A stretch of 64,000 nucleotides of DNA from an uncultured Methanosarcinales archaeon (GCA_964537195.1 CAZHYZ010000001.1:5522-69521), one strand, 5' to 3'; numbered from the stretch's first letter, positions 2,773 through 60,100 are shown. The notes: generated by a model not told the origin, from the letters alone. Made by a program: numbers and translations.

Positions 2773-4253
2773 GTTCTATCTCTTCTATATATTTTTGTGG
2801 TATCATTTAAGATTAGACTAAAACACTCGTCATTTATGTAAGATATGCTTTCTATGTCGTATTTTTCTCTTGCTTTCTTGGAAAAGACAATATAGTCTAC
2901 CTCATATTTTTCTAATAGCCTGAGAGCTTCTATTCTAAATTTTTGAGTATAGGCCTTTTTTATATCATCTACTCTTACATCTACGTCCTGTATCAGTAAG
3001 TAGTCTGTGTCTAAAACATTTTTTCTTTCACCAAAGTAAGTGATTAAATGGCCTTCTTCAGGAGTGCCCAGTATAACAGAATTTTTTGGTGTTGATTTAA
3101 GAAATCTAAAACTTTCTATATATTCTTCGGTCGGAGTATTTTTGATTTGGTGGGACATACTGAAAATTCCCGGAAGAACCTGAGTTAATATTAATAGAAC
3201 AATCACCAAAATAAAAACTGAGTTCTCATATTTTGCAAATTTAGTTTTTCTCAATCCAGAGAAAAAATCTCGTAGGAATTGTCCAAACAAGATTACTAGT
3301 GAGGATCCCATGAAAATTAGTGCAAGTTCAGCCTGGACCATTTTTAACCAGAAAATTATTAAAGTTGAGAGAAATAAGCTAATAAAAACAAGGAGATTCT
3401 TACTTTTCTTCCGCATAATATAATTATATAAAGAGAACATTCCAAAAACAAAAGGAAGGAGGCCGATGTTGTATATTGCTTGTAAAAGATTTATATTAAC
3501 AAAATACTGGCTCAATATTTGAGTGGGTGTATTTTTCCATATTATGTCAAATCCATGTAATTGAAAGGCCGATTTATATATGATAAAATTTGTCCATAAG
3601 AAAAAAAAGGTAAAAAATGAGATATATTCCAAATTAATTCTGGAGGAAGGCACTTTCTCTATATATCTCAATAAAAGCAGGATTATTAAACCAAACAAGA
3701 GCAAAAAGATAGCTGAAGTGGCTAGGGTTAGAAAAAGGGTTAGAGGTATGATGTATTGGAGCATTTTTTCATCTTTTTCTAGACTTATGAAGAAATATAA
3801 TAAAAAGAAAGTTCCGGGGAAGATAAGAGAGTATATACTAAGATCATTTATTGTCTGATTAATATATATTGGTAGCAATGCAGACACAGTAGCCACTATT
3901 ATTGAAATTTTCCTGTTTTTTATGATTCTTTTTGCAAGAAGATAAACAGCAACAATAATGGTGGATGCAAGAATGTTGTTTACAATTTTTAGAGTAAAGA
4001 CTCCTGGGAAAATCCATGAGAAAAAAGCAAGTAGATAGTAGTATACAGGAAGCAATATAAAGGTTCTCCCACCATAACTAAGGGTGTCCTTTGTTAAAGG
4101 AAGACCTACTTTTTTTATATGCTCTATCTGCCTAAGAGCATAGTATGATTCTTCATTAGTGAAATAAGGTGTTTGTAGAGAGAAATATAATCTAATCCCA
4201 AGATACAAAACAAACAACACCATAAGTATAATATATCTTCTTCTAATCTTCAT
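2766..4253 (-). CDS. Polytopic membrane protein, GT-C (ArnT/PMT-like) glycosyltransferase candidate
   Basis: Multi-TM N-terminal region plus C-terminal soluble domain; start overlaps the upstream gene by 7 nt; sits within the glycosylation cluster. Confidence 0.4.
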   Translation of the reverse strand: MKIRRRYIILMVLFVLYLGIRLYFSLQTPYFTNEESYYALRQIEHIKKVGLPLTKDTLSYGGRTFILLPVYYYLLAFFSWIFPGVFTLKIVNNILASTIIVAVYLLAKRIIKNRKISIIVATVSALLPIYINQTINDLSIYSLIFPGTFFLLYFFISLEKDEKMLQYIIPLTLFLTLATSAIFLLLFGLIILLLLRYIEKVPSSRINLEYISFFTFFFLWTNFIIYKSAFQLHGFDIIWKNTPTQILSQYFVNINLLQAIYNIGLLPFVFGMFSLYNYIMRKKSKNLLVFISLFLSTLIIFWLKMVQAELALIFMGSSLVILFGQFLRDFFSGLRKTKFAKYENSVFILVIVLLILTQVLPGIFSMSHQIKNTPTEEYIESFRFLKSTPKNSVILGTPEEGHLITYFGERKNVLDTDYLLIQDVDVRVDDIKKAYTQKFRIEALRLLEKYEVDYIVFSKKAREKYDIESISYINDECFSLILNDTTKIYRRDRTC

Positions 4254-4286
4254 TGCTTTAATAAAACAGTGTCAATTTTTATATTT

Positions 4287-4625
4287 TTAGAAAAAATCTT
4301 TCAAATATCCTGTAAATGTTAATAAAACTATCAAAACCGTAGTGATAAAAAAGACAAATTTAGCTAAGGGAATTTTGAATACAACATCAATTAAGACATA
4401 TACTGCAGCATAACTTAAACCTGCAAGATGTGATAGAACGTATTTCTCAACAAAATTTATTTTTAATCTTATAATCAAAGGCAAAAAGGGCAAATAAACA
4501 AAAAACATGTATGTTAATGTTAGCACAAAACTGGCAACAAAACTATTTAATAACAAACTTATAATGAATACAGAGGCAAAACCAATTACAACACACTTAA
4601 ACAATTCTTTAATTTTATCTTCCAT
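4287..4625 (-). CDS. Small integral membrane protein
   Basis: 112 aa, three hydrophobic helices; overlaps the neighbouring gene by about 10 nt. Confidence 0.3.
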   Translation of the reverse strand: MEDKIKELFKCVVIGFASVFIISLLLNSFVASFVLTLTYMFFVYLPFLPLIIRLKINFVEKYVLSHLAGLSYAAVYVLIDVVFKIPLAKFVFFITTVLIVLLTFTGYLKDFF

Positions 4626-6360
4626 TTTTTATTATCATATATCCTTCATTATCATAAACGAGATTAAATCCTTGTTCATTAATATAACGTGCGGAAAAAT
4701 AATTATTGATCTGGGACATTTGCAGGTTCAAATCCTGGAACAATACATAATCAAAATCATATATTGAAAAATTACTGCCCGGTTCTTCAAAGGTCTGATA
4801 ATTTAAGAATGACACTTCATATTTATGCACCGCTCTGACGGTTCTTCCACCCCAAGTACCAGAGAAGGAAGTTGCAGTTACATTGTTTTCAGTTACTTTA
4901 TTGACTATTCTCTGCAACTCTGCTTGTGGAAAGGATGCAGAGATTCTTTTTGTATAAATGATTTCAGATTGAAAAGTTCCATCAAAAAAGAGTACTTTAT
5001 CATTTTTGTTAGTGTTTTCATGCAACCAGACATATGCTTTCCATTCCCCCAAAGGTATGTGCTCTCCCTGTATTCTGTTTGTAGTTTCTTTATACTGTGG
5101 AAATGCAAGTACCAAAGGGAGAATTGTAATAAAAAGAACCAAGGCAAACTCAATTAATTTGGTCTTTTTAAGATTTGAGACAGACACTATCAAAAATATA
5201 CTCCCTTGGATGAGTACATATAATGCGACAGCAACAAAGGGCACAATTATAAAAACTTGGAGGGCCCGCATTCTTCCTATATAATAAGGAAGTTTGATAA
5301 ATAGCGGCACCAGATAAACATATATAAAATAATATAAAGAGATAAAATTCCACAAAAGCAGGGGTTTAGTCATTTTTTTATTCTTAGGCAGAACAAGTTT
5401 CTTTTTTTTGTATTTTGGCAGACCAATATCCTTCTTTTTAATTAACAAAGCAACCAAAATGAAACCAAGAATAAACAAGACAACGAACACAATAGGCAAA
5501 CTAAAGAATTTTGGAAAGATAGAGCCAGATTGTACATTTCTGTTAAAGATGTTTCTGATACCATAAAATCCAACACCATATTGTTTTCCACCTTGTGCTC
5601 CCCAAACAAACAAAAACCGGGGCAACATAGTTAAAAACACAATTCCTGGTACCAAACCAAAAATTAAGGTTTTTTTTATTGTTTGATAAAAGTTTTTCGA
5701 GATGTTTTTTAATATTTTGAATAATATTATTACAGAGGGGATAAAGAGAAACATAAGGTCTTGGGGATGTAATAAAATCACGGAAGAAATACAAACGCCC
5801 AGAAAGATTAGTGTCCAATTTTCCCTGTTTTTCAAAAATCTAATAAACAACCAGAGAAAAGTCAAAACAAACAGATATGACGGGACTTGAATCCAGAACC
5901 CGATGTATAAACCATACAACCAGGCACTAATTGGGATAGGCAATATTGAAAGACCAGCACCAATTAAACCAACCATTTCATTATCAAAAATCTCTATTGT
6001 TATAAGGTAAATTAATACTATAAATAATGCTTGGGATATAGAGATTAAAAAATAAAGTGTGTCCCAAACAGGAACATTAGAGAACAGATTTAAGATTGCT
6101 GCATTTAGATAATATAGGGGGGGCTGAGAATTAACTGCTTTTTCTTGACCAAGAGAAAAAACAACATCATAATAGTTCCATTGTTGTGTGTCTATTATAC
6201 CTTCAGTAATTAGTGCATGATAAAAAGCATCTGCGGCCTTTAAATTTCCCGGATGCGACAAAGGCAATTTATTTATGTTTGTGTAAAGGAGAGTTGTAAT
6301 TATAAACAGAATCAAGACAAGGTATTGAATGTTTTTCTTGAAATTAATTTTTAGTTTCAT
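4615..6360 (-). CDS. Polytopic membrane protein, GT-C-like glycosyltransferase candidate
   Basis: 581 aa with at least 12 TM helices and a C-terminal soluble domain; translationally coupled to the Dpm1-like GT2 gene upstream. Confidence 0.4.
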   Translation of the reverse strand: MKLKINFKKNIQYLVLILFIITTLLYTNINKLPLSHPGNLKAADAFYHALITEGIIDTQQWNYYDVVFSLGQEKAVNSQPPLYYLNAAILNLFSNVPVWDTLYFLISISQALFIVLIYLITIEIFDNEMVGLIGAGLSILPIPISAWLYGLYIGFWIQVPSYLFVLTFLWLFIRFLKNRENWTLIFLGVCISSVILLHPQDLMFLFIPSVIILFKILKNISKNFYQTIKKTLIFGLVPGIVFLTMLPRFLFVWGAQGGKQYGVGFYGIRNIFNRNVQSGSIFPKFFSLPIVFVVLFILGFILVALLIKKKDIGLPKYKKKKLVLPKNKKMTKPLLLWNFISLYYFIYVYLVPLFIKLPYYIGRMRALQVFIIVPFVAVALYVLIQGSIFLIVSVSNLKKTKLIEFALVLFITILPLVLAFPQYKETTNRIQGEHIPLGEWKAYVWLHENTNKNDKVLFFDGTFQSEIIYTKRISASFPQAELQRIVNKVTENNVTATSFSGTWGGRTVRAVHKYEVSFLNYQTFEEPGSNFSIYDFDYVLFQDLNLQMSQINNYFSARYINEQGFNLVYDNEGYMIIKNGR

Positions 6361-20498: not shown

Positions 20499-21218
20499 AT
20501 GGCAAAGAAAAGTAAGGAGAAATTCAAAATCTATAAGAATGTGTTTGATAACTTTACGTTAAGGACGCTTTTCAAGTTATCAGGTCAGGGACATTTTGAG
20601 GACTTGGTCTCTCCAGTTGAGATAGGTAAAGAATCCAACATATTTCTAGCAGAAAAGGGAGAAGAATATGTAATTGTCAAGATTTATAGATTAGAAAACT
20701 GTAACTTTAATAAGATGTACTCTTACATAAAATCAGACCCCCGATTTATGGATATAAAAAACCAAAGAAGACAAGTAATATTCAAATGGGTTCAGAGAGA
20801 ATATAGAAATCTTCTGATGGCACGTGAAAAAATAAATGTTCCCACTCCCATGGTTTTTGAGAATAATGTTCTTGTAATGGAGTCTATAGGTGGAAATATT
20901 CCTGCTCCACAATTAAGGAATACTGAATTAGAAGATCCGGTGGGTTTCTCTAAGAAAGTATTAAAATCCATAGAAGGAATAACTGAAATGGGATTAATAC
21001 ATGCAGACTTATCAGAATTTAACATTCTAGTCCATAATGACATACCTTATTTCATTGATTTTTCACAGGGTACAAGTAAAAAAGATCCTAATGCCAGAGA
21101 GTATCTCAAGAGGGACTTGACAAATATTTCCAAATATTTTGCTAAATTAGATATAAAAATAGAGGTTGAAAAGGAGTACAAGAGATTAGTTGAAATTTTT
21201 AAAAAAGGAAATAATTAA
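20499..21218 (+). CDS. rio1: RIO-type serine/threonine protein kinase
   Basis: Atypical kinase core with LIHADLSEFNILV catalytic loop and the FIDFSQG metal-binding motif; 239 aa. Confidence 0.8.
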   Translation: MAKKSKEKFKIYKNVFDNFTLRTLFKLSGQGHFEDLVSPVEIGKESNIFLAEKGEEYVIVKIYRLENCNFNKMYSYIKSDPRFMDIKNQRRQVIFKWVQREYRNLLMAREKINVPTPMVFENNVLVMESIGGNIPAPQLRNTELEDPVGFSKKVLKSIEGITEMGLIHADLSEFNILVHNDIPYFIDFSQGTSKKDPNAREYLKRDLTNISKYFAKLDIKIEVEKEYKRLVEIFKKGNN

Positions 21219-21253
21219 ATAACAAGTTAGATTTATTTTAAAAAGGTGATTTT

Positions 21254-21496
21254 ATGGTTGACGAAAAAGCTTCAAAAGATGAACAAATAGGTTTTCATAA
21301 AGGTGCTCTATCGACACTAGCTAAAGAGAGACAGGAATTAATGAAATTAACAAGCATAGTGGAGCAATTGATGCAGATGCATGTTAAAGCATTGAAAGAC
21401 TTGGGTGTTGATCTCCAAAAGATGGCAGAGAAAGCAGAAAAAGGCGAGAAAAAACCTATTGAAGACTTAGTAAAAAAGGAATCAAGAGAACAATAA
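21254..21496 (+). CDS. Small coiled-coil protein (hypothetical)
   Basis: 80 aa, helical and heptad-like; may be a prefoldin-like or other small coiled-coil protein. Confidence 0.3.
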   Translation: MVDEKASKDEQIGFHKGALSTLAKERQELMKLTSIVEQLMQMHVKALKDLGVDLQKMAEKAEKGEKKPIEDLVKKESREQ

Positions 21497-21498
21497 TT

Positions 21499-21888
21499 AT
21501 GTTTTTTTCTATTAAAGGACATAAAAATGTATTATGTACTCACGAGACGACACTCGAGTTTACAAAAGACAAACACCTTACTAAAAGAGGAGATTGTATT
21601 CTTGGAGTGGTGGCAGATTTTAATTTTTCTGAGTTAAAGCAGATAGTCGAGAAATATGAATCAATTAGGCTCACAATTAATATGGGGGGAGAGACGGAAG
21701 TAATAACTGCAAAAACAAATAAAAACTTTAACAACCAAAATGAAATGGTGATTAGAACAAGTGATTTTCTTTCTGAAAGAACTATTGCAATCAAAGCAGA
21801 CAAGGCAGCAATCGATGTTAATAGGAACATTGTTGAAAAATTGAAAAACCCAAAAAACAAAGCAAAAATTGAGATCAAAGGAATATGA
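21499..21888 (+). CDS. DUF371-like archaeal protein
   Basis: 129-aa ORF translationally coupled to the PUA gene by an ATGA overlap; recalled resemblance to the archaeal DUF371 family. Confidence 0.35.
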   Translation: MFFSIKGHKNVLCTHETTLEFTKDKHLTKRGDCILGVVADFNFSELKQIVEKYESIRLTINMGGETEVITAKTNKNFNNQNEMVIRTSDFLSERTIAIKADKAAIDVNRNIVEKLKNPKNKAKIEIKGI

Positions 21889-22331
21889 AAACATTAAGCA
21901 ATCAAGAAATCAGAGAACTAATAACACAAATTGAAGAGTCATACGGAGATTTAGGATTATCAAAAAAAGACAAATATGAAATTGATGACAAGATAATATT
22001 GATTAATAATAAACCAACTTTTTTCTATGGTGGAGGGAAGATTTGTCCTACTTTAAAAGTAATTCTTAAAAAAAACTTTTTGCCAAAAATTACTGTTGAT
22101 ATGGGCGCTGTAAAATTTGTGATAAAAGGTGCAAACATAATGAGGCCCGGAATAACCAAACTAGATGAAGACATAAAAAAAGGAGACATTGTATCTGTTG
22201 TTGATGAAACACATAAGAAACCTTTAGCAATAGGAAGGGCAAAATATTCTGGTTCTAAAATAAAGGAAAAGGAAAAAGGTAATGTAGTTGAGAATCTACA
22301 CCAGATTGGAGACGACATCTGGAACTATTAA
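21885..22331 (+). CDS. PUA-domain RNA-binding protein
   Basis: The C-terminal GAVKFVIKGANIMRPGI...GDIVSVVDETHKKPLAIGRAKYS is a PUA-domain signature. Confidence 0.55.
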   Translation: MKTLSNQEIRELITQIEESYGDLGLSKKDKYEIDDKIILINNKPTFFYGGGKICPTLKVILKKNFLPKITVDMGAVKFVIKGANIMRPGITKLDEDIKKGDIVSVVDETHKKPLAIGRAKYSGSKIKEKEKGNVVENLHQIGDDIWNY

Positions 22332-22362: not shown

Positions 22363-23592
22363 ATGAATATTAATTTGTCCAGCGAGCTTACCACATTGAG
22401 AGAGTTGGTGCTTGATCAAGATATTGTTGAAATCCCTACCGACTTAATTTATGGAGCTTTTGGTTTAGATACAAACACATACAAGCTATTAGATTTGAAT
22501 TCTTTTGTAATCATATTTAATTTGGCTAAAAAAGTTTTTATTGACCAATACAGGATTTGTGGGAACCCTAAATTGATTCATTCTGTTGATGCCACAGATT
22601 ATGTGAAAGAGATTGTTGATCAACTAATTCATTCTGGAGCATATTTTAATCCAGTTCCTTTATTTAATGTTACATTAGGGCATGATGTGGTAGAAGATGA
22701 TAAAGATAATTATAAATCAGAATTAAACACAATGGTAGAGCGCGGAGTGTTTTCAATTGATCAGTATCTTGCTATAAGAGCACTTACAAAAAATGATCAA
22801 GTTTTTCATCCACAAAAAAAAGAAGTAATAAAGTATGAAACAGAGCCAGAGAGATATCTGGAGAATTATGCAGATTATCTTAGGGGGTTGTTGGATGTTA
22901 ATATTTTAGAATATAACCTTACAAAAGCAACAGAAAACCACAACATGTCTTTTCCACTTCCCCCAAATACAAACCTCGACGTTATTAGTTTAGAGGATAT
23001 AGCTTTGCTTGGTTGTGCTGCAAAATCAGGAGATGCACTGGACAACATTAATACAGCCACTTCTTTAAGAAATAGTATTTATGTTCCTCTGAGAATCCAT
23101 GAACCGAGATATGAAATAGAAAATGGTTCAATAATAAACAGAAACATGCATTTTGAAGATTATATCAAACAAATAAGAAAATCTAGCATAGTTTTAGAAT
23201 TTTTGGGGGAATACATCTCAAATTCAGATGAAGACCCCATAAAGTATCAACTTACTTCTGCGTTGGTTATTAAGCTATATGAGGACACAGTAGAAGAATT
23301 AGAAAAAGAAATAAGGAGAACAGAAGTAGAACTTGACGATACAAAAGACCACAAAGATAAAATTGAAGAATTAAAATCTATGATTCCACCAAACATCAGA
23401 CTTAGTGTTATGAAAAGGAGATATGATTGGGCTTTAAATTTATTGCACGGAGACACAAATTATATGACACCAGAACTTAATGATGCTTTGTTATTCCATC
23501 TTGAAACCGTTCAAGGGGTGTTAGAAAACGTTCGGAAAAGACGCGGAAAGAGAATGTCGGTGTTCAAAGAAAGATCCCTCTTATCATATTAG
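22363..23592 (+). CDS. RelA/SpoT (Mesh1)-type HD-domain hydrolase homologue with an approximately 200-aa C-terminal extension of unknown function
   Basis: Three collinear motifs match the RSH hydrolase HD domain from memory: KLIHSVDATDYV (cf. ITHPLAVA), LGHDVVEDD (cf. LLHDVIEDT), LTKATENHNM (cf. KLADRLHNM); GC content is visibly higher than in neighbouring genes. Confidence 0.5.
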   Translation: MNINLSSELTTLRELVLDQDIVEIPTDLIYGAFGLDTNTYKLLDLNSFVIIFNLAKKVFIDQYRICGNPKLIHSVDATDYVKEIVDQLIHSGAYFNPVPLFNVTLGHDVVEDDKDNYKSELNTMVERGVFSIDQYLAIRALTKNDQVFHPQKKEVIKYETEPERYLENYADYLRGLLDVNILEYNLTKATENHNMSFPLPPNTNLDVISLEDIALLGCAAKSGDALDNINTATSLRNSIYVPLRIHEPRYEIENGSIINRNMHFEDYIKQIRKSSIVLEFLGEYISNSDEDPIKYQLTSALVIKLYEDTVEELEKEIRRTEVELDDTKDHKDKIEELKSMIPPNIRLSVMKRRYDWALNLLHGDTNYMTPELNDALLFHLETVQGVLENVRKRRGKRMSVFKERSLLSY

Positions 23593-23620
23593 TTACTGAA
23601 ACTAAGGATAAACAATAAAA

Positions 23621-25111
23621 ATGTATGGGAATGAACAACACGAATTAGTACTTGAGAATTTAATAGAAAGAATAGATCCTAATAGAGTAATAACTAATGA
23701 CTTTGGACATTTAGTGGTTTTTCATCCTGGAGAACCTGGTTATGATGAGGCAAGACCAAGAAAACCAAACGAACTGTCTCTCGCAAAATTAACTAGGAAA
23801 CTCTTTCTTGATGAGGACACAAAGGAGTTGAGGACAGAGTTAGATCTTAGTGAAGAGGAGAGAGAAGCACTCCTATATTTTACATATAAAAGAAAAGAAG
23901 CAGGAGCATTTAAGACAGCAATCATTATGGCTGACCTAATGGATTCACACAGGTTCCAGAAGGACGGTAGGAAACCACTGTCAGAGTTTTGGCAAAGCAA
24001 TTATATTGAGAACGAGGCCCAATTTCTTGATGTCTTAGTAAATGAAGTATTTAGAAGAGGAAACAGAGTTTTTGATCCCAGCAGAAGGATCGATTTTAAA
24101 GATAAGAAATACGTAGCCATTGATGTTTTAAAGGAATTTGTTAGGGGATTGAAGAACCAGGGAACAAAGTCTGTAAACCACAGGGTTCAGAAACTTATGA
24201 AAGAAGCCAGCAAGACACCCTACCACATGATGTTTCATTCTAGGGACAACATGCCAAGCAACAGAAATCATTTAGCAGTAATTTATGGTAGGGTGAAAGA
24301 GTCTAATAGTGAAAACAAGAAGCAATCTGCATATTGGGCAAGGGACATAAAACAGATGGAAGAAATAGCAACACTTAGAGACTTGGGAGTTGATTTGTCG
24401 CTCGAGGAGGTTCCTGGAGATATAAAACAGGAATATAGGCGTGCATTAAAAGCTGCTGAGAGATATCGAGACATGAAACCAGAGTATTATATTTATAAAT
24501 TAGATAATCGAACTAGGTTTGATGAGTTAATGGACAGATGGTATTATGGAATCGAGGACAGTTATGGAATAACTATTGTTTATTCTCACAGAGTCGGTCC
24601 TGAAGAAATTGAAGAAACAAGAGAATATTTCCATGATCTAGTTCTTTGTGACATAGTTCCTGGATCTTTTGATGACCACACCAAACAACCAAATAAACCT
24701 CAGGAAGTACAATTTAAGATTAAATTAAATAGATATTGGGTAGAAGAAGCATTACCTCCACATTTGTTTCATGATTTTTATGTACCAGACAATATTGAAA
24801 TTCAAGTCACTAGTTTACCAGACTTAGTACACAAATATCTGACCCCTGGGTTGGCAGAAACAGACTATAAAAAAAGGTTTATTACTGAAAAATTAGGTAT
24901 AAGCGAATCTAATCCAGATTTTCTGACCATATTTCAGACATTACAAGGAATATCTCCTGTTCAGGGAACAATGGAGTATTTTAGAGAACATAGAAATCAA
25001 CTAAGGAAAAATCTTTCTTATATTGGACGAGAGTCTCGGCATGAGTTACAAGAAGATTATGAAGCAGTTATCTTAGATTTATTAACAGCCGGAACATTTG
25101 ATATTAATTAA
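23621..25111 (+). CDS. Hypothetical protein, possibly a divergent RelA/SpoT-like nucleotidyltransferase (alarmone-synthetase-like)
   Basis: 496 aa, R/E/D-rich and the most GC-rich gene in the window; weak ordered motifs IYGRVKESNSENKK, YSHRVGPEE and EVQFKI resemble the RSH synthetase motifs GRxKxxxSxxxK, SLHTVVxGPEG and EVQIRT. Confidence 0.3.
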   Translation: MYGNEQHELVLENLIERIDPNRVITNDFGHLVVFHPGEPGYDEARPRKPNELSLAKLTRKLFLDEDTKELRTELDLSEEEREALLYFTYKRKEAGAFKTAIIMADLMDSHRFQKDGRKPLSEFWQSNYIENEAQFLDVLVNEVFRRGNRVFDPSRRIDFKDKKYVAIDVLKEFVRGLKNQGTKSVNHRVQKLMKEASKTPYHMMFHSRDNMPSNRNHLAVIYGRVKESNSENKKQSAYWARDIKQMEEIATLRDLGVDLSLEEVPGDIKQEYRRALKAAERYRDMKPEYYIYKLDNRTRFDELMDRWYYGIEDSYGITIVYSHRVGPEEIEETREYFHDLVLCDIVPGSFDDHTKQPNKPQEVQFKIKLNRYWVEEALPPHLFHDFYVPDNIEIQVTSLPDLVHKYLTPGLAETDYKKRFITEKLGISESNPDFLTIFQTLQGISPVQGTMEYFREHRNQLRKNLSYIGRESRHELQEDYEAVILDLLTAGTFDIN

Positions 25112-25554
25112 TTCCTTCTCTCCTTAGGGACATAATTTAACAGTTTCTTATTCTTTAATTTACCACAACCTAGAAAGTCTCCCTTATTCTTTACTAAAAT
25201 AAAACCTTCTCTTTTATCATCAATTTTAAAATCCTGTCCGCCCATCCACAACTCAGCTTGTTCATCATTTAATTCTAAGACCTTTTTTCTAGCAATTTTT
25301 CCAATAATTTGAGAACCTTCTATACTCAATCTTATTTCATCATTATCATAAAGAAGTCCAAAATATAATCCCAGAGAATTAAGTCTCAACTCATCAATAT
25401 CAATTAATTTAATCTCTTTATTAAGAATGTAAATTTTATTATGATTGTTCATAAAAACTTCGTAATCAAACTCAAAATTACATCCATAGTATTCACTAAT
25501 TACTTCTGCAATCTCTTTTCTTTTTTTTGAATTTAAGATTTCTAGCTTTTGCAT
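25108..25554 (-). CDS. NIP7-like PUA-domain protein (ribosome-biogenesis factor homologue)
   Basis: About 150 aa with a C-terminal GFILVKNKGDFLGCGKLKNKKLLNYVPKERR PUA-like tail; size matches archaeal NIP7 homologues. Confidence 0.4.
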   Translation of the reverse strand: MQKLEILNSKKRKEIAEVISEYYGCNFEFDYEVFMNNHNKIYILNKEIKLIDIDELRLNSLGLYFGLLYDNDEIRLSIEGSQIIGKIARKKVLELNDEQAELWMGGQDFKIDDKREGFILVKNKGDFLGCGKLKNKKLLNYVPKERRN

Positions 25555-25578: not shown

Positions 25579-26217
25579 ATGTATTTTATATGTATGAGAA
25601 AATATGTTCTATTATTAATGTTGTTGTTAACATTAAATATTTCTTTAGCATCTACTGTACATTATGGCGAAGTTAGAATACGGGTGGTAAACAAACCTCC
25701 CACCATCACAAAAATAAATATTCTACCAGAAGAACCCTATTATGATGATGTTCTTCAGTGTCATATTGAAGTTGATGACGAATCTCCCGAGACAGTTTCT
25801 TTTGATTATAAATGGTATGTAAATAAAAAATTACAGAACCGAAAAGGTAGCACTTTTTTTATTTTTGATGAGACCGATAACATTACTTGTATAGCAACAC
25901 CTACAGACCAACATGATTTACAGGGAAGAACTAAGAAAGCTATTACAAAAATTAACACCGCACCAATTCATGTAAAAGCATTGAAGCCAACGCTTAATTT
26001 AGCAGGTATTCAAGTGAGTGCCAAAGAAATTACAGAAAGTACAAGTATGGGTACAATAACAGGCATGGTTACGGGGGAAAGAGAAGGGAGTAACATAACT
26101 TTGGTGTTCATGTTAACTGTATTTACATTAATATTAATCTCAATTAATCTCTTTGGGTTAGTAATTACACTAAAAAGAAAGTCTAAATCCCCCAAACAGG
26201 ATTATCAGATCGCATAA
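25579..26217 (+). CDS. Secreted or surface protein with signal peptide and C-terminal TM anchor
   Basis: N-terminal hydrophobic signal, beta-rich middle, C-terminal TM helix followed by a basic tail (KRKSKSPKQ). Confidence 0.4.
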   Translation: MYFICMRKYVLLLMLLLTLNISLASTVHYGEVRIRVVNKPPTITKINILPEEPYYDDVLQCHIEVDDESPETVSFDYKWYVNKKLQNRKGSTFFIFDETDNITCIATPTDQHDLQGRTKKAITKINTAPIHVKALKPTLNLAGIQVSAKEITESTSMGTITGMVTGEREGSNITLVFMLTVFTLILISINLFGLVITLKRKSKSPKQDYQIA

Positions 26218-27946
26218 TTTCAGCAATTTCCTTTAAAACTTCAATTTCTCCCTTAGAAAGATATTTTGTTAATTTCTTTATTCTCCTGAAATCTTTTTCA
26301 GGAATGTAACTATAAAGTATATCACCTTCATTTATTTGTCTTCCCACAGTCACTCTAGAAAGCGACATTGCAACTTGCTTACCTTTTGTAACTGAATTAA
26401 GATTTTCTTTATCAAGTTGTATTCCCTTTAGCACGGTAATGGTTTTCCCCTTTTTCATTAATCCTGTTCCTGTTTTTATTTTTCCTTCTAAGACATCTAC
26501 ACCAACAATTGCAGGATTACTCTGTCTAAAAATATAATTTGGCATTATCTCGATTTTACAGGGCCTAACCAAATTGTCAAGTTTTTTTGCTTCCATAACT
26601 TTTCTCTGTTGTTCTCTCCAGATTTCGTATTCCTCTAATATTTTATAGATTATATCACTTGTAATTATCTTAACTTTATCAGAACCCGTTATGTCTGCAT
26701 CTCTGTCCACATTAAAACCCAAAACAACAGCCTGTAATGGATCTTTTTCATAATTTGCTTCTGCTTCCGATAGGTCTTTTTTAGATATTTTACCAATATT
26801 TGCTTTTCTTACAAGAATCCCCTTTTCTTTTAACATAAACGTAAGTGCCTCTAAAGAACCGAGGGTGTCTGCTTTTATGATGACGCCCTCTTTTCCAGTC
26901 TCAATCATAATCTCTTCAATTTCTTTTTGGACTTCTTTTTCAACTTTTTCTTTATTCTCCTTAGTATAACTCTGTAGAGGCATTCCAGCTATAACCTTCT
27001 CAATTTCTGGAGCACATATTTTAACTCCAGTAGCAGCAGTTACTTTCTCAACTTTTTTGAACTTTGTTTTTTTATCCCTCATCTCTTTTAAAGGCAAAGG
27101 ACACAACAAAGCTTTAACTCTCGTCTCTATTGGTTCTTCAACACCCCCAACAATTAAATTGTCATTTCTTTTTAGAATCCCATCATAGATAATAACATCT
27201 AAGGTTTTCCCAAGACCTGTTGTTTCTTTTACTTCAAGTACGGTTCCTTTAGCATTTCCCTTAACATGTAATTTCAATGAGTCTTCAAGATATTTCTGAG
27301 CCAAACCAATTAATACCATTAATAATTCAGGGATACCATCTCCAGTAATTGCAGAAACAGGAACAATTGCAATCTGCTTAGTGTAATCCTCAATCCTATC
27401 AAATCTTTCGGAATTAAATCCTTTTTCAGATAGTTTTCCAAGGATTTCATAAATTTTTGTATCAATTTTTTCTCTAACATATGGATCCTGGCTTTCTAAA
27501 TTTTTTAGGAGATATCTTTCTTTATTATCTCTATACCCAGGAATTAGGTCAATCTTGTTTGCAGCAATAATAAATGGTGTCTTAAATTTTTTTAGAATCT
27601 CTAGACTTTCCAATGTTTGAGGCATTAATCCCTCATTAATATCTATTACTAAAATAGCAATATCAGCTATACTTCCACCCCTTTTTCTTAGTGTAGTGAA
27701 AGCTGCGTGTCCAGGAGTATCTATGAATAATAATCCCGGAATCGTAAATTTTGATTTTTCGCTTAATAAGTTGCCACAGACTTTTTTAATTGTGTCTAAT
27801 GGGATAATTGAGGCTCCAATTGCTTGTGTTATGCCTCCTGCCTCTCCTGATTGTGTAGCAGTTCCTCTAATTTTATCTAATATTTTTGTCTTTCCATGAT
27901 CAACATGGCCCAAAACACCAATGACTGCCTGTCTTAACTCTGTCAT
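26183..27946 (-). CDS. infB: Translation initiation factor aIF5B (IF2 homologue)
   Basis: GHVDHGKT G1 motif and DTPGH G3 motif, with domains II-IV; 587 aa and no intein. Confidence 0.9.
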   Translation of the reverse strand: MTELRQAVIGVLGHVDHGKTKILDKIRGTATQSGEAGGITQAIGASIIPLDTIKKVCGNLLSEKSKFTIPGLLFIDTPGHAAFTTLRKRGGSIADIAILVIDINEGLMPQTLESLEILKKFKTPFIIAANKIDLIPGYRDNKERYLLKNLESQDPYVREKIDTKIYEILGKLSEKGFNSERFDRIEDYTKQIAIVPVSAITGDGIPELLMVLIGLAQKYLEDSLKLHVKGNAKGTVLEVKETTGLGKTLDVIIYDGILKRNDNLIVGGVEEPIETRVKALLCPLPLKEMRDKKTKFKKVEKVTAATGVKICAPEIEKVIAGMPLQSYTKENKEKVEKEVQKEIEEIMIETGKEGVIIKADTLGSLEALTFMLKEKGILVRKANIGKISKKDLSEAEANYEKDPLQAVVLGFNVDRDADITGSDKVKIITSDIIYKILEEYEIWREQQRKVMEAKKLDNLVRPCKIEIMPNYIFRQSNPAIVGVDVLEGKIKTGTGLMKKGKTITVLKGIQLDKENLNSVTKGKQVAMSLSRVTVGRQINEGDILYSYIPEKDFRRIKKLTKYLSKGEIEVLKEIAEIMRSDNPVWGI

Positions 27947-35513: not shown

Positions 35514-37424
35514 ATGGTCGACAAAATGAAAAAAAACATTTTATTTCGCTCTAGTATATTATTTGCATTAATGATATTTATATTGTTTTTTAACGCCAAC
35601 TCAGTAAGTGCTTTTGAAGGTTGTAAGATTGATTATTCAGTAGGTAATTCTGCGTGTTATGGTGTTTCAGACTGGGGTTCAACAGATATTAATCATTTAG
35701 TTAAAAAAGCAGCTAAGAACAACCCAGGAACAACATATATGGGCTGGTGTCCTTATGACGGCGCCAAACCTTATGCTACAAACGTAGTTGCTGCATGTGG
35801 TTGTCCTTCATTACCAAAACCAGCACCAGGAGATTTTTCAAGTGGAACCTGTAGTGCATGTGGAAACCCAGTTTATAGATATAATTCAGCTCCAACATGC
35901 GAAGACGAATGTTATCTTGGTCAGACAAAGTGTAGACCCGGAGATGATTTGTGGGTATGTGGAGATTTTGATTCAGATCCCTGTTTTGAATGGGGATTTG
36001 ATAAAAGTTGTGATTTTTCACATGAATCAGAATCATATTTTGTTTGTGAAAATGAAGATTCTGTAGAGTATAAAGAAGTAGGAGAAGGTTTTTGTAATGA
36101 TCAACCAGGATACAACGACTATTGTGATTCTACAGAAGACACTATTAGAGTAGATGAGACAGATTGTGGTTATACAACATGTGAAGATGAAGAATTTTGT
36201 CAAAATAATGATGTTTATTCTACTATAGAATGTGTTGAAAGAGGATGTAGAGAATCTACAGGAATATGTTATGAGCAAGAGACAAGTTTTACAGAGAAAG
36301 AACAGGAATGTGGAGAAGATACACAAACAGAAGATTATTGTGAAGGAGAAAACGTTGTTTATGAAATAGTAGATAGAGGATGTACGGAGAGTAATGGACA
36401 CGCTTCTTGTTTTGAAGACCCGGATAAAATTATTGTGGATGAATGTGGTCCTGACACTTGTACACCCTACACCGAGATGGATCCCTACACACAAGAATAT
36501 GTGTATGATGAAGAGAGCTGTATTGAAAATGGATATGCTTATTGCTCTCCAAATGACGAAGAAGTACATGATATGTGTATAACATCAGATATATTATGGC
36601 AGGCTTATTGTAATGGTCAGGATAGTGCATTTCAAGAGTTTAACTGTGGTCAGAAAACAGGTTGTTATGAATTTCAAGTAGAACAATGTTTCTATTGTGA
36701 AGATAACTATGGTAATTGTTATGAAAAGAATTGCACTGTTACAGGAGAAAAATATAGAACCTATTCATGTAGTTCAGGAGCATGCCAATATGAAGAAAAA
36801 GAACTTGTAGATGAAGACATGGACTTCAAAGATGATGAATATTGTGATGATTGTATAGATGTAGATAGAGATGGTATTTGTGATGACGTTGATAATTGTC
36901 CTGGAGTTAAAAATAGTAACCAAATAGATACAGATAAAGACGGTCTCGGAAATATGTGTGATAAGGATAGAGATAATGATGGATATTCAGAAAATGTAGA
37001 TTGTGATGACTGGAATCCAAACATAAATCCAGGAATGAAAGAGATTCCTAACAACAATATTGATGATGATTGTAATCCAGACACACCAGACTTTGTTGTA
37101 AATACTGCAAAAGAAGCATTGTATGTGGACATACAGATGACTGAAGAATATCTTAAAGCAGGAGAAGACGCAGTCATAATGGTCACAGTAAGAAACATGG
37201 CAAGCAAGGATATGGACAATGTTCAATTAACGGTTAGTATACCAAGATATCAAATATACCAAAGAAAACTATTATATGAAGTAGAATCAGGAGAGATAGT
37301 TTCAAGAATTTTTGAAATTAGGCTTCCAGAGAATTTGAAGACAGACTATGAATATTTAAGGGTTAGTGTTAGTAGCAACCAATACAAGAGAATAATCTAT
37401 AGAGAGATTAAGTTACCACAATAG
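35514..37424 (+). CDS. Secreted Cys-rich acidic surface protein with thrombospondin type-3 (Ca-binding) repeats and a C-terminal CARDB-like domain
   Basis: Signal peptide; about 60 Cys; DVDRDGICDDVDNCPGVKNSNQIDTDKDGLGNMCDKDRDNDGY fits the TSP3 DxDxDGxxDxxDNCP repeat; the C-terminal VTVRNMASKDMDNVQLTVSIP is CARDB-like. Confidence 0.7.
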   Translation: MVDKMKKNILFRSSILFALMIFILFFNANSVSAFEGCKIDYSVGNSACYGVSDWGSTDINHLVKKAAKNNPGTTYMGWCPYDGAKPYATNVVAACGCPSLPKPAPGDFSSGTCSACGNPVYRYNSAPTCEDECYLGQTKCRPGDDLWVCGDFDSDPCFEWGFDKSCDFSHESESYFVCENEDSVEYKEVGEGFCNDQPGYNDYCDSTEDTIRVDETDCGYTTCEDEEFCQNNDVYSTIECVERGCRESTGICYEQETSFTEKEQECGEDTQTEDYCEGENVVYEIVDRGCTESNGHASCFEDPDKIIVDECGPDTCTPYTEMDPYTQEYVYDEESCIENGYAYCSPNDEEVHDMCITSDILWQAYCNGQDSAFQEFNCGQKTGCYEFQVEQCFYCEDNYGNCYEKNCTVTGEKYRTYSCSSGACQYEEKELVDEDMDFKDDEYCDDCIDVDRDGICDDVDNCPGVKNSNQIDTDKDGLGNMCDKDRDNDGYSENVDCDDWNPNINPGMKEIPNNNIDDDCNPDTPDFVVNTAKEALYVDIQMTEEYLKAGEDAVIMVTVRNMASKDMDNVQLTVSIPRYQIYQRKLLYEVESGEIVSRIFEIRLPENLKTDYEYLRVSVSSNQYKRIIYREIKLPQ

Positions 37425-37548: not shown

Positions 37549-38904
37549 ATGAAAAAAACAATGTTTGTGCTAGTAACATTCGTTATAGCCATACTAACTT
37601 TGTATTCAGCATTTGCTGACTCTCAGGAGTGTATAGACTGCTGCGGAGGAGGTCCATGTGATTCTGATCCAGCTGAAACACCAACGTTGGATATAGAGAC
37701 ATGTACAGTGGAGATAAACGATATTCCTTTAGAAGAAGACGTTGTATTAAACGAGGTCTTTGAAAGAGGAGAAGATCTTGAAATATTTGTTAGATTTCAA
37801 TCAAATCAGGACGCAGAGGATGTCCAGGTCATGGTATTTCTAACAGGATATCACAGATCAAAATACACAGATGATATATCTGATATGACATCAACTTTTG
37901 ATATCGAAGCAAACGACGGTATCCACAAGTATCTAGAATTAAGACTACCAGATGATTTCAGAGTGGATTCAGAAGATAGACTTAAAATAAGAATTGTTAT
38001 ATCTGATAAATACTCTACAACATATATTAAGGATTACAATATTAGAGTAGAGCCAAAAGACCATAACATAGTCATACAAGATATTCTATTAGATCCTTCA
38101 ACAAGAGTTCAGGCAGGAAGAGCTTTGTTCTCAAGCGTTAGAGTTAGAAACATGGGAGATGAAGACGAAGAAAGCATAAAAATTACAACTTCGATACCAG
38201 CTCTTGATGTTAAAGCAACAGAATATATTGATGAGCTTGAGTTTGACGAAGCAACAACCTCAGAAGACATGTTCTTAAGAATTCCAACATGTGCTGAACC
38301 AGGAGAATACGTTGTTAAAGTCACAGTTGATTATGCTGATGGAGACGAACTAGTAACAAAACAAACCAAAATAGAAGTTACAGAAAACCCAGAATGTCAA
38401 CTAATAGATGGTAGAGACGATAAAACAGTTGTTACTGTACCTGGAAGGCAAGATGTTATTAAAGGCACATCAGGAACAGTTTATCCAATTATATTGGAAA
38501 ACAGAGGAGTTACTGATAGATCTTATGAATTGTCAGCATCAGGATTAGATGCCTGGGCAACATACAGATTTGAGCCAGGAACGGTTGTTATTGTCAGAGC
38601 CGGAGAAATGAAGACAGCATACTTATATATTACACCAAAAGAAGAAGCTTCTGAAGGTGAGAAAGTCTTCATGGTAAATGTTGAAACACAAAACGACCAG
38701 AAACAAATTGGTCTTACAGCTAACGTAGTAGCAGGAGAAGCACCATCACCACTAGGAGATCTTGGAGATTTGAAAAGACCTCTTGAAATAGGTTTGATAG
38801 TGTTAGTAGTCTTGCTAGTAGTACTTGGCTTAGTAATTGGTTTCAGCAAAATGAAAGGCGAAGGCGAAGAGCCTGATGAAATATCAGGACAAACCTACTA
38901 TTAA
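37549..38904 (+). CDS. Surface protein with signal peptide, CARDB-like domains and a C-terminal TM anchor
   Basis: N-terminal signal; CCGGGPC motif; a repeated VRVRNMGDEDEESIKITTSIP pattern; the C-terminal hydrophobic helix LIVLVVLLVVLGLVIGF followed by a charged tail. Confidence 0.6.
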   Translation: MKKTMFVLVTFVIAILTLYSAFADSQECIDCCGGGPCDSDPAETPTLDIETCTVEINDIPLEEDVVLNEVFERGEDLEIFVRFQSNQDAEDVQVMVFLTGYHRSKYTDDISDMTSTFDIEANDGIHKYLELRLPDDFRVDSEDRLKIRIVISDKYSTTYIKDYNIRVEPKDHNIVIQDILLDPSTRVQAGRALFSSVRVRNMGDEDEESIKITTSIPALDVKATEYIDELEFDEATTSEDMFLRIPTCAEPGEYVVKVTVDYADGDELVTKQTKIEVTENPECQLIDGRDDKTVVTVPGRQDVIKGTSGTVYPIILENRGVTDRSYELSASGLDAWATYRFEPGTVVIVRAGEMKTAYLYITPKEEASEGEKVFMVNVETQNDQKQIGLTANVVAGEAPSPLGDLGDLKRPLEIGLIVLVVLLVVLGLVIGFSKMKGEGEEPDEISGQTYY

Positions 38905-54799: not shown

Positions 54800-54883
54800 G
54801 CCCTCATAGCTCAGCGGTAGAGCGACAGTCTCGTAACTAGCCAAGAAAACTGTAGGTCGGGAGTTCAACTCTCTCTGAGGGCT
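54800..54883 (+). tRNA. tRNA-Thr(CGU) with a 12-nt intron at the canonical position
   Basis: Acceptor GCCCUCA/UGAGGGC plus discriminator U; D-stem GCUC/GAGC; anticodon stem ACAGU/ACUGU, loop CUCGUAA; T-arm GGGAG-UUCAACU-CUCUC; intron ACTAGCCAAGAA at 54836-54847. Confidence 0.75.
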
Positions 54884-57171: not shown

Positions 57172-60100
57172 ATGAAATCCACAAAAAAATCTCAGATATC
57201 TTTATTTCTTATAGTGGGCTTGGTTTTGTTATTAGTTGTGTCCCTATTTGTAGTTGTAAGAATAAATATGAAGCGAGCAGATGTACAACAAGTTAAACAA
57301 GAAAGTATTACTTTTCAAAATCTTGAAGAAGATGCAGGATTGTATGTTGAAGATTGTATTGAGCAATCTGTTTTTGAGGGTATAGAGAATTATGGTCTTG
57401 ATTCACCAGGCATTCTTGAAGTATATGTAGGTGAACAGATTATGATTTGTACAGATGAGTTTAAGATATATGAGAACATAGCAGAGATATCTGAGGAAGA
57501 ACCAGTTGTCAATGTTGAGATTAATGACGATATAATTAATTTTAATATAGATTATCCAGTAATTTTTTCAAAAGGCGAAGAACAATTCAGATTAAAAAAA
57601 TTCAGCTATAGTTTTAGGACTAACACCTTAATTGATTCTGACGGCGGCATAATTGAAGAAGGCACAGTATATACAACAGAAGATGGAAGATTGAATCTTT
57701 ATTTTTCTGACGATACTACAGTAACAAAAGACGGTGATAGTGTTGATGCTATTAGTTTGAATGTTGAGGACGAACATATAAATGGATTGTCTAACGCTGT
57801 TGTGATAGGTTCTGTTTTATATGAAGGATTGCCTCATGGAGCAAAATTTAATCCTGCCATTGAGGTTACAGTTGAGCTTGATGAAGAAGACATTCAAGGT
57901 CTAGATACTTCTGCATTGAAATTAGCATATTATGATGATGATGCAGATTTGTGGATAACATATCCTAGTTACTTTGATGAAGAAAACATGGTTGTTCGTG
58001 GTAAAGTTGATCATTTCTCTTTGATATCCGTATCAATGTGTGGTTCAAGCGTGGATGGACAAGCTACAATGCAAATGAGTACAGGAGAGAAGACCTTTCC
58101 TATGGAGTTTATTTTTAAAGATCCTTTTTTAGATGGAGAAGACAACGGATGTAATCCAACCCATTGGATGTATAACTCTCTAGAGGATGACGAACACGGC
58201 AGTTATGGTTTTCATTTGTTGCCTGAATTCATGTCTTCTTTTGAATGCGAGTATGATAATTATGATATGACTACTTACTATTATGGAGAAGAATTTCCTG
58301 TGGATGTATGTGATTTAAACTCTGAACATATAAGGGACTGGGATAATGATGATGATCCTGCTTATGAATTTGGTGTTGGAGAAATTAAGATTTCTTTTTC
58401 AGGTATAGAAAACCCTCAAGAATTTACACTTTTTGCAGAAATGTCATCTGATCAAAGTAAGGAAGTTTATACCTATTTGGAAAATAAATGTGTTTCTGCT
58501 GCAAGTGCTTTTGCAAAAGAAAAGATTAAAGAAAAGTTTGACTGGGTTACAGACGACTTAATTAGTGGAGATGGAATTAGAGACGGAGCAACCCTACATT
58601 GTACAGCAGACCTTAGTGGAACAGAAGGAGACACTCTTGATTCCTTTATGGGCAGGGTTGCTATTGGAAGTATTGGAGTGCAATTTAATGAAGGAAGTAT
58701 AACAGATAATTTAGAAAATCCTGATTCTATTTGTTGGGGTGGAGGAAAATGTTCACCAGTCCAGACAATAGAAGATTATGGTGATGGAGTTCCCCTTGTT
58801 CCTGGGGCTACAAAAACCAGATTAGGTTTCTTTGCAACTCCAAAAACATTTGGGTTTGCATTTGAGCAACAAGAGCCATTTCAAGTGCTAACTACTTATG
58901 AAGATATTGGAGCAATAAAAGATGATGTTGACCAAACTTTTCATCCTTTGCTTGGAGAAGGAGAATTCACTTTTTATCTGAGAACTGGAGGAGATGCATG
59001 TGTTAGTTATGAACCTAGTGGATTAGGTTGTTGTGTTAACTCACAACAAGTTGGAGATGAAACAGTCATAACTGACTGCCAAGGAAAGCCCGATGAGAAT
59101 GGGTGTCGGGGGGAATTTTTTGATAAAGATTGTCATGAATTGTCTCAGTGTATAGGGAAAACAAATGATTTAGAAGCATTTCTCATACAAGAAGAAGTAG
59201 AAGTTGAGAATTATATTCTTAAAAGTACACCTTCTAACATAATAACTATTGCTTCTCAGGCAGGTTCAACCCCCATTAAAAACACTATTGCTACAGATCT
59301 TCAAAAAACACAAGGAGAAACAGATTTAAGTGTGGCAAATGATGATGAGTACCTTCCTTTAGTTTATGACATGTCCAAAATTGAGGGAAGAGACTGGTCT
59401 TGTTCTGATACTTGTTTATGGACAATAAATGAAGAACCTGGAAAAATATTGAGCGAGACAACTCAGCAAAAAACAAAATCAACACCTGCCTCTCCGGGTA
59501 AATTGAGATCAGGAACAAACACAGTTAAAGTCAGGGTAGCAAACTTAAATGATGTTTGTATGTATGCTCGGGCATTTCTACAATTAAAAGGACAAGGAGT
59601 TACTTTCTTTGATATCTCTGAAGATGTTGATAGACCACTAACAGAAGATGATTGTAAGGCTGTTGATAGTTGTTGGGTAAGTAGACCAAACATAGAAAAC
59701 GGCGGATTTTGTGTAGTTAAGGGAGAGAATAACGGAGGTTATTGTTGTTTTGGTGCAGAAGAGGGCAATTATATGTACCCATATCCACACTTTGAATATT
59801 TTGGTGACCAAGAATGTAAAGCAAATGAAAACGCACGACCAATGGATGAGTTGAGCTGTACCACCCAGGGTGGAAAATGGACAAATGGTTTTTGTGTTAG
59901 AGCCGGAGAATACAATGCAGAATATTGTGTTGTTGGTCCTACAGAAGAGAAGAATTATGTACATTATGAACTTGCAGAGGAAAATATCTGTCCTTGTGAA
60001 GATGGAAGAGAATGTCTTGTTGCCAGTGAGTGTGAGGTTGTGGATGAATATCATTCTGTGAGATGTTCTCAGACAGAGCAAGGAGAGAGAATGTATTGTT

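Follow-up and report, generated by a model that had tools for sequence, protein, structure and literature searches.

The gene pair

Two adjacent genes with features of RelA/SpoT homologue (RSH) enzymes were analysed. They lie on the plus strand of a 64,000-nucleotide (nt) stretch of DNA deposited as an uncultured Methanosarcinales archaeon (GCA_964537195.1, CAZHYZ010000001.1:5522-69521), which as a whole is called the window below. Gene 1 (22363..23592, +) encodes a protein of 409 amino acids (aa), predicted to be a divergent homologue of the RSH-type HD-domain hydrolases that resembles the small alarmone hydrolases (SAHs) and continues into a C-terminal extension. Gene 2 (23621..25111, +) encodes a 496-aa protein of three parts with a predicted synthetase (nucleotidyltransferase) core of the RelA/SpoT type. 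Both open reading frames (ORFs) are present where a preliminary description, made without database searches, had placed them; the gap between the two genes measures 28 nt and not 29 nt as it had claimed. In public gene calls the identical proteins are found as P0014 (gene 1) and P0002 (gene 2) on a 222-kb contig. In relatives, whose contigs and proteins are cited by L and P numbers, the two genes are separated by 5 nt in L011 and overlap by 4 nt in L002.

The RSH hydrolase signature of gene 1

The HD hydrolase domain of gene 1 spans approximately residues 45-245 (22495..23097, +), an extent taken from hhalign and hidden Markov model (HMM) alignments to SpoT and Rel and from the family alignment. 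Its first motif, QYRICGNPKLIH (Q62-H73; 22546..22581, +), corresponds to the RSH pattern QxRxxGxPxxxH with the first metal-binding His and has the same spacing as SpoT QTRSSGEPYITH. The second, LGHDVVEDD (H107, D108, E111, D112; 22675..22701, +), corresponds to HDxxED, its H, D and E being invariant in 7/7 orthologues. The third, AAKSGDALDNI (K221, D224, N228; 23017..23049, +), corresponds to K-x-x-D-x-x-x-N with the last metal-binding Asp, is likewise invariant in 7/7 and aligns with IKVADRLHN of Rel. The preliminary description had recognized the first two correctly (KLIHSVDATDYV with H73, and LGHDVVEDD) and had assigned the third to LTKATENHNM (22918..22947, +). That candidate was ruled out by the family alignment, since it lies inside an insert of about 40 aa (approximately residues 178-218) that is peculiar to the subfamily of the window, and it is not conserved in P0001 and L009. 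The C-terminal region (residues 246-409; 23098..23589, +) comprises about 165 aa, less than the 200 aa or so that had been claimed for this additional domain. It has a helical or coiled-coil look from sequence, is conserved solely within the subfamily formed by the window, P0001 and L009, and gave no Pfam or PDB match except chance coiled-coil matches.

Across seven positional orthologues of gene 1, the invariant columns were H73, H107, D108, E111, Y169, K221, D224, N228 and P242, which comprise the HD-superfamily tetrad H...HD...D (H73, H107, D108, D224) as well as the Glu specific to RSH enzymes and the K-x-x-D-x-x-x-N motif. When searched against the PDB, a profile of the seven orthologues matched solely RSH hydrolase domains. 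The best match was Rel of M. tuberculosis (5xnx, E = 5e-7), and others were RelA, B. subtilis Rel, SpoT, RelSeq (1vj7) and T. thermophilus Rel; the SAH/MESH1 type was represented by SAH 7qoc, MESH1 3nr1, the (p)ppApp hydrolase 7smg, and by 3nqw and 5vxa. Comparison of the orthologue alignment with E. coli SpoT by hhalign yielded a probability of 96% (E = 3.5e-9). Against a nine-sequence RSH HD reference profile, made with long RSHs from E. coli and from plasmids, the full gene 1 set reached 94.6% and the canonical subfamily 95.1%. The syntenic orthologue P0004 matched SpoT in BLASTP at 2e-4 (GLPKFAHPMQV with GEPYITHPVAV, ALLHDSIED with ALLHDVIEDT) and the PHROG family phrog_990, 'metal-dependent phosphohydrolase', at 2.7e-10; for gene 1 itself phrog_990 was the sole PHROG match, with E = 0.13.

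Because the subfamily of the window lacks significant similarity to the canonical one, the RSH signature was tested directly on gene 1. The pattern QxRxxGxPxxxH...HDxxED...KxxDxxxN was present in 5/5 hydrolase-active reference RSHs and in no inactive ones of the RelA type. Gene 1 contains the complete signature in the right order and with the right spacing (QYRICGNPKLIH, HDVVED, KSGDALDN), and among 213 background ORFs it was found in gene 1 alone. In 200,000 shuffles of gene 1, the first element arose five times and the first two elements together never. Family profile, hhalign and signature agree with the proposal that gene 1 encodes a homologue of the RSH/Mesh1-type HD hydrolases, and on these sequence grounds it is classified as such.

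The synthetase-like core of gene 2

The core of the gene 2 product (approximately residues 196-430; 24206..24910, +) is preceded by about 195 residues and followed by about 65. The N-terminal region (approximately residues 1-195; 23621..24205, +) contains the conserved blocks SLAKLTRKLF and FTxxRKE, was modelled with predicted local distance difference test (pLDDT) values mostly of 70-90 and matched no family.

Alignment by hhalign brought the core into register with the RSH synthetases. The motif AVIYGRVKESNSENKKQ (R224, K226, S230, K234; 24275..24325, +) corresponds to GRxKxxxSxxxK, which hhalign placed opposite GRVKESNSENKK; K226, S228, S230, N232 and K234 do not vary, and R224 occurs in 6/7. 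A variable insert, residues 255-300 (24383..24520, +), separates the first helix of the core from its second strand and is poorly conserved, with pLDDT values of 38-53. The motif IEDSYGITIVY (D313, G316; 24551..24583, +) corresponds to D-x-x-[AG]-x-R-[IV], with IEDSYGITIV aligned to DxxAxRVIV. D313, the putative Mg2+-binding Asp, is found in 8/8 and is the equivalent of D90 of FaRel2, the role of which has been described (bioRxiv 10.1101/2021.04.30.441581). In the hhalign register, GSFDDHTKQPNKPQEVQFKIKL (24662..24727, +) corresponds to kDYIxxPKxNGYxSxH, i.e. to the acceptor/G-loop and strand 4, and PGSFDDHTKQPNKPQEVQFK to PGrxKDYIxxPKxNGYxSxH; K359, P360 and E362 are present in 8/8 and F365 in 6/8. 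The catalytic EvQIRT is represented by NIEIQVTS (E393, Q395; 24791..24814, +), with IEIQVTS aligned to vEvQIRT and both residues present in 8/8. Finally, HKYLTPGLAETDYKKR (Y416, K417, R419; 24830..24877, +) corresponds to G.AAHW.YK, with GLAETDYKKR aligned to GvAAHWxYK and with Y416 and R419 in 8/8. Earlier assignments were correct for the first motif (IYGRVKESNSENKK) and misplaced for YSHRVGPEE and EVQFKI. EVQFKI, which had been taken for the catalytic ExQ, forms the strand equivalent to GYxSxH, the true ExQ being IEIQVTS (residues 392-398), followed by YK at 416-417; spacing, the secondary structure of the model and hhalign all spoke against this reading and against YSHRVGPEE as the 'SLHT' strand.

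With an alignment of two sequences, AlphaFold2 modelled gene 2 with a pLDDT of 39; with the nine-member family alignment, which came from the exhaustive HMMER search described below, pLDDT was 76.6 and the predicted template modelling score 0.79, the core reaching pLDDT values of 75-92. The top nine Foldseek matches of this model were all Rel, RelP or RelQ, with marginal E-values, and the viral library gave no match. In hhalign, residues 180-421 covered the whole reference synthetase (SYNTH) core in a single collinear register, with a score of 26.1 (P = 0.008); none of 30 column-shuffled controls exceeded 18.8, and the reversed profile reached 12.7. No match was obtained by hhalign when gene 2 profiles were compared with the single sequences of SpoT and of a RelA_SpoT protein on contig L013. 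The ordered motif set was found in 0/200,000 shuffles, with a pattern that had been relaxed after sight of the query.

Members of the gene 2 family are 18-40% identical, and the residues invariant among them (K226, S228, S230, N232, K234, D313, K359, P360, E362, E393, Q395, Y416 and R419) coincide with the RSH motifs, indicating that selection has kept the active-site positions. The motifs of the ATP/Mg2+ site (R224, K226, S230, K234, D313, E393, Q395) occur in the expected order and are invariant or nearly so. Modelling and Foldseek, the hhalign register and motif conservation bear out the view that gene 2 encodes a synthetase-like protein, and as modelled it contains a RelA/SpoT-type synthetase (nucleotidyltransferase) fold with conserved catalytic motifs. 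The profile and structure comparisons foreseen in the preliminary description had a divided outcome: neither protein matched a Pfam family on its own, and the structure search with the gene 2 model led to Rel, RelP and RelQ.

Relatives and conserved gene order

Word-indexed searches of 5.8 billion proteins revealed one relative each for gene 1 and gene 2, and HMMER, run exhaustively against 1.84 billion representatives, revealed about ten relatives of gene 2. A further word-indexed protein search returned the query alone, back-translated pattern scans of genome and metagenome contigs returned nothing, and profiles of the genes made from 2-3 sequences had no match in Pfam, NCBIfam, PADLOC or PDB sequences. 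Relative contigs with a named source came from metagenome-assembled genomes (MAGs) called Woesearchaeota, Pacearchaeota or Nanoarchaeota, in which all of the proteins were annotated as 'hypothetical protein'. No close bacterial homologue of the pair was found among the 1.84 billion representatives.

In the window, gene 1 and gene 2 close a tightly packed co-directional run (upstream genes at 20499..22331) begun by the gene of a RIO1 kinase (20499-21218, +). This is followed by a conserved 80-aa ORF without a Pfam family (21254-21496, +), a DUF371 gene (21499-21888, +) and a gene for a DUF1947+PUA protein (21885-22331, +). The gaps from DUF371 to gene 2 range from -4 to 31 nt, with 36 nt after RIO1, and these short distances suggest that the run from DUF371 to gene 2, with RIO1 upstream, is co-transcribed. 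On the other side, the convergent gene of a 148-aa PUA-like protein (25108-25554, -) overlaps the stop of gene 2 by 4 nt, and aIF5B (26183-27946, -), also convergent, lies downstream with an ORF of 212 aa (25579-26217, +) in between. RIO1, DUF371, DUF1947+PUA, PUA-like and aIF5B were assigned by Pfam. Genes for Trm1 and a Cdc48-type ATPase are also in the vicinity of the pair. No RNA families or tRNAs were detected in the region of the pair, and Pfam analysis of the neighbours showed no adjoining mobile-element genes.

The order RIO1, ORF of about 80 aa, DUF371, PUA, [gene 1], [gene 2], PUA-like (reverse) and, further on, aIF5B (reverse) was found in L001, L009, L011 and L015, and the partial contigs L002, L008 and L013 were consistent with a conserved cluster order. 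Both genes occurred together and in this order in at least six lineages. Identity to the window was 37-85% for the flanking proteins (76-80% for aIF5B), 0-32% for gene 1 and 21-34% for gene 2. Since the pair occupies the same slot and is far less conserved than its flanks, it has apparently been inherited in place while evolving much faster than its neighbours. Gene order and identity mark the pair as a long-standing, inherited component of a translation-gene cluster and lend no support to a recent lateral acquisition.

Several further observations were made on the relatives and on the cluster. P0005, on contig L008, is the closest full-length relative of gene 2 (40% identity); on the same contig, an AT-rich spacer of 260 nt (1096-1358) with a hydrophobic 41-aa ORF lies in the place of gene 1. 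In L009 the flanks are the closest to those of the window and gene 1 is 32-35% identical, and its gene 2 product, P0012, is the most divergent member at 18-23%, indicating that gene 1 and gene 2 evolve at different rates. Contig L013 encodes a canonical 414-aa RelA_SpoT protein just past the PUA-like gene (3482-4726, -), with a Pfam score of 40.3 bits and the motif EVQIRT. Its Asp and G-loop motifs lie about 145 residues apart, as against about 30 in SpoT, and PADLOC gave a weak match to the candidate PDC-S33; the protein shows no similarity to gene 2 at profile level and has no relative in the window. The 80-aa ORF, which is 72-85% identical in L001, L009, L011 and L015 and thereby surpasses aIF5B, is the most conserved protein of the cluster and probably an unrecognised small core protein. 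The 212-aa ORF contains a hydrophobic segment at either terminus, matched nothing in Pfam and overlaps the 3' end of aIF5B (26183-26217); the same position is occupied by a 211-aa gene in L009 and a 308-aa gene in L011.

Base and amino acid composition

A visibly GC-richer module, 8-10 GC points above its flanks, had been expected. The measured GC content was 34.4% versus 32.4% for the window, i.e. 2 points or 1.3 standard deviations higher and at the 89th percentile of equal-sized windows. Individually, gene 1 (0.330) and gene 2 (0.358) compare with 0.319 +/- 0.027, and at third codon positions (GC3) the values were 0.268 and 0.288 versus 0.248 +/- 0.033, a shift within noise. The statement that both proteins are Lys-poor and Arg-rich was accurate: Lys amounts to 6.4% in gene 1 and 7.1% in gene 2 (mean 10.4%), Arg to 5.1% and 7.7% (3.6%), and R/(R+K) to 0.45 and 0.52 (0.27 +/- 0.11). 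Several further genes of the window are equally Lys-poor.

Three big plus-strand genes elsewhere in the window (35514-37424, 37549-38904 and 57172-61245) are stronger compositional outliers than the module, with 4-5% Lys, 9-11% Asp, a GC content of 0.35-0.37 and low GC3. The sole tRNA of the window (54800-54883, +; 84 nt) scored 59 bits with Rfam; ARAGORN classed it as 'tRNA-???' and placed an anticodon of only two bases (cg) at position 33. An intron or an atypical anticodon loop is possible.

Comparison with known systems

A stand-alone hydrolase gene directly upstream of a synthetase-fold gene on the same strand is also found in FaRel/ATfaRel, in which the gene of a toxic small alarmone synthetase (toxSAS) is preceded by that of its type IV antitoxin, a PbcSpo-type SAH (Jimmy et al., bioRxiv 10.1101/575399), and in both systems the hydrolase would plausibly undo the product of the synthetase. 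Unlike FaRel/ATfaRel, which is patchy and phage-associated, the pair is archaeal and fixed in a core translation cluster. Its proteins are about twice as long and contain extra regions, they are not detected by Pfam or PADLOC, the acceptor Tyr is not conserved, and one relative has no hydrolase at the site.

With the long Rel/SpoT proteins (HD-SYNTH-TGS-...-ACT) the pair shares the order of hydrolase and synthetase, the hydrolase signature and the synthetase motifs RxK...S...K, D..G, ExQ and YK. An association with translation is also common to both, by gene neighbourhood for the pair and by ribosome binding for Rel/RelA. In contrast to the long proteins, the pair consists of two ORFs separated by stop codons, and no TGS, ACT or other regulatory C-terminal domain was detected. 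The pair does not appear to be a simple fission product of a long RSH, as about 165 aa (C-terminus of gene 1) and about 195 aa (N-terminus of gene 2) of unrelated sequence lie between the catalytic domains.

Gene 1 resembles the SAH/MESH1 enzymes (HD_4, PF13328) in having a single catalytic HD domain with RSH-specific motifs, but with 409 aa it exceeds their length of about 180-200 aa, owing to the internal insert and the C-terminal extension, and it scores below all curated thresholds. Gene 2 is only 10-16% identical to RelP, RelQ and the tRNA pyrophosphokinase CapRel, from which it further differs by core inserts of about 45 aa and 22 aa, by Glu for the acceptor-stacking Tyr and Thr for the Arg in D-x-x-G-x-R, and by the N-terminal region.

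RSH proteins have been found in archaea before, including Woese- and Pacearchaeota: divRel/divSpo, Mesh1-L and pbcSpo (PMC3153485) and annotated RelA/SpoT (PMC8407392), to which the 414-aa protein of L013 can be added. Atkinson et al. reported only a few archaeal RSHs, whose presence they explained by horizontal transfer (PMC3153485). In a 2021 survey of DPANN archaea, 41.7% of the Woesearchaeota MAGs and 21.3% of the Pacearchaeota MAGs had annotated RelA/SpoT (PMC8407392), so that RSH enzymes in DPANN are not new in themselves, and the assertion that alarmone enzymes are essentially unknown in this group is not supported. Whereas those proteins are recognisable by standard HMMs and have been read as sporadic bacterial transfers, the pair went undetected as 'hypothetical' proteins and is syntenic across lineages. 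No description of this gene pair was found in the literature.

Discussion

The interpretation that we favour, with moderate confidence, is that the pair represents a vertically inherited, fast-evolving RSH module of a Woese/Pacearchaeota-type DPANN lineage, acting as a make-and-break switch that tunes translation. It builds on predicted folds and on family relationships, on the conservation of active-site motifs and on gene order; catalysis, substrate and the link to translation are inferred. In RSH enzymes, the synthetase domain moves pyrophosphate from ATP onto a 3'-OH, which may be that of GDP/GTP, ADP/ATP or the CCA end of tRNA, and SAH enzymes reverse both alarmone synthesis and the pyrophosphorylation of tRNA-CCA. 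Gene 2, a larger protein with a predicted central RSH synthetase fold and conserved ATP/Mg2+-binding motifs, would move the beta-gamma pyrophosphate of ATP onto the 3'-OH of an acceptor. This acceptor might be a purine nucleotide, giving an alarmone like (p)ppGpp or (pp)pApp, or the 3' end of an RNA or tRNA. Gene 1, a putative stand-alone RSH-type HD hydrolase resembling the small alarmone hydrolases, with an intact metal-binding and catalytic signature, would strip off the same 3'-pyrophosphate in a Mn2+-dependent reaction, and the two products would together form the switch. As the pair lies inside the conserved RIO1-DUF371-PUA...PUA-like-aIF5B cluster, such a switch would most likely tune translation or ribosome function, rather than serve as a mobile toxin-antitoxin or defence system.

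A number of observations weigh against this interpretation. Gene 1 alone matched nothing in Pfam, NCBIfam or PDB sequences and fell below all curated thresholds. The window subfamily of gene 1 (window, P0001 and L009; profile A7) showed in neither hhalign nor HMMER a significant similarity to the HD profile or the canonical subfamily (A7 against A8, E = 0.11 in hhalign), and the HMM of the canonical subfamily scored it no higher than shuffles; the assignment of gene 1 in the window consequently rests on motifs and positional orthology. Gene 2 alone likewise had no match in Pfam, NCBIfam or PDB sequences, and gene 2 and seven family members showed no RelA_SpoT Pfam match even at E <= 10. The hhalign evidence for the SYNTH core is weak, noise in the same mode reaching about 25 (A4 against SYN). 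At the position of the acceptor-stacking Tyr (Y128 of FaRel2, in NGYxSxH), which is conserved in small alarmone synthetase (SAS) enzymes and essential in FaRel2, gene 2 has the invariant E362, with F365 three residues further on; the alignment is weak around E362 and a shifted aromatic residue is possible. In addition, the Arg of D-x-x-G-x-R is replaced by Thr318. Given these two substitutions, the acceptor cannot be inferred from gene 2, the chemistry of which may differ or be lost. Contig L008 has an intact gene 2 homologue straight after the PUA gene and neither gene 1 nor a remnant of it, although the contig measures 3.2 kb and gene 1 may be located elsewhere in that genome. In P0012 (L009, 3520-4833), Arg224 of the first motif is changed to Gly. 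Together with the absence of gene 1 from its site in L008, this indicates that the two activities are not strictly coupled.

One alternative is that the pair is functionally uncoupled or partly degenerate. Gene 2 would then catalyse another transfer reaction or be non-catalytic, binding ribosomes or RNA, and gene 1 would act elsewhere, e.g. on the products of a separate canonical SAS or, as MESH1 does, on NADPH. Besides the exchange of the acceptor Tyr for an invariant Glu and of the motif Arg for Thr, this explanation could account for the large N- and C-terminal regions of gene 2, for the lack of gene 1 in L008 and for the presence in L013 of an additional canonical RelA_SpoT protein (40.3 bits) beside the module, and non-alarmone substrates are known from MESH1. 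It is nevertheless judged unlikely, because the ATP/Mg2+ residues K226, K234, D313, E393 and Q395 remain invariant in a family of only 18-40% identity, which argues for retained catalysis, and because the genes co-occur in order in at least six lineages.

The preliminary description had also likened the pair to toxSAS/SAH toxin-antitoxin or defence pairs. In such a toxin-antitoxin or anti-virus pair, gene 2 would be a growth-arresting RSH toxin that makes (pp)pApp or pyrophosphorylates tRNA, and gene 1 its type IV hydrolase antitoxin. The likeness in gene order holds: the hydrolase gene directly precedes the synthetase gene on one strand, 28 nt away, an arrangement shared with FaRel/ATfaRel (bioRxiv 10.1101/575399); products of toxSAS enzymes are detoxified by SAHs, and the pair evolves much faster than its neighbours. 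Such a role is, however, rather improbable. In every relative recovered with full context the pair is fixed within the core translation cluster and not in a variable island, its neighbours being RIO1, DUF371, PUA, aIF5B and Trm1 and no mobile-element genes. There was no PADLOC match, gene 2 of L008 is intact without gene 1 at the site (on a contig of 3.2 kb), and both proteins are about twice the typical size of an SAS or SAH.

We regard it as very improbable that the pair is a foreign island taken up recently from bacteria, as its composition had suggested. The increase in GC by 2 points and the odd Arg/Lys usage would fit an import, and archaeal RSHs have generally been put down to horizontal transfer (PMC3153485; PMC8407392), but GC and GC3 stay inside the spread of the window itself. 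The pair occupies the same slot in the divergent relatives L001, L009, L011 and L015, between flanks of 37-85% identity, and a close bacterial homologue is lacking: the 1.84 billion representatives yielded about ten cluster representatives, of which those with a named source come from MAGs of Woese-, Pace- or Nanoarchaeota. It is possible that the ancestor of the clade received the genes by an ancient transfer. That both proteins are lineage-specific orphans with a chance resemblance to RSH enzymes, as the lack of significant single-sequence matches and low-stringency hhalign noise of up to about 25 (A4 against SYN) might suggest, hardly comes into question, since the family profiles match RSH HD domains with E = 5e-7 and 96% probability and not one of 200,000 shuffles reproduced the motif sets.

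With an inherited RSH module thus preferred, what appears to be new is a pair that standard models do not detect, that is syntenic across lineages and that seems to combine extra domains with a remodelled acceptor site. So far, the RSH genes of archaea have been regarded as sporadic imports from bacteria (PMC3153485); this pair is instead conserved in place across divergent DPANN lineages. Catalytic residues have been kept while the remaining sequence drifted and the genomic place was conserved, which points to a selected, lineage-wide function in nucleotide or RNA pyrophosphorylation in organisms with minimal genomes. As gene 2 was recognised only via a structural search, surveys based on HMMs under-count RSH enzymes. 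The pair also provides two clonable proteins with which it can be asked whether archaea use RSH chemistry, and on which substrate.

A more specific proposal, which we advance only tentatively, is that of an ancient inherited RSH-type make-and-break system of the Woese/Pacearchaeota-type DPANN clade, co-transcribed with genes for ribosome biogenesis and translation factors. Its remodelled acceptor site, with Glu for Tyr, might serve to 3'-pyrophosphorylate a non-canonical acceptor, i.e. the 3' end of tRNA or rRNA or a non-guanosine nucleotide, in a housekeeping regulation of translation. If this were true, archaea would possess in this system a counterpart of the stringent response that relies on a different chemistry.

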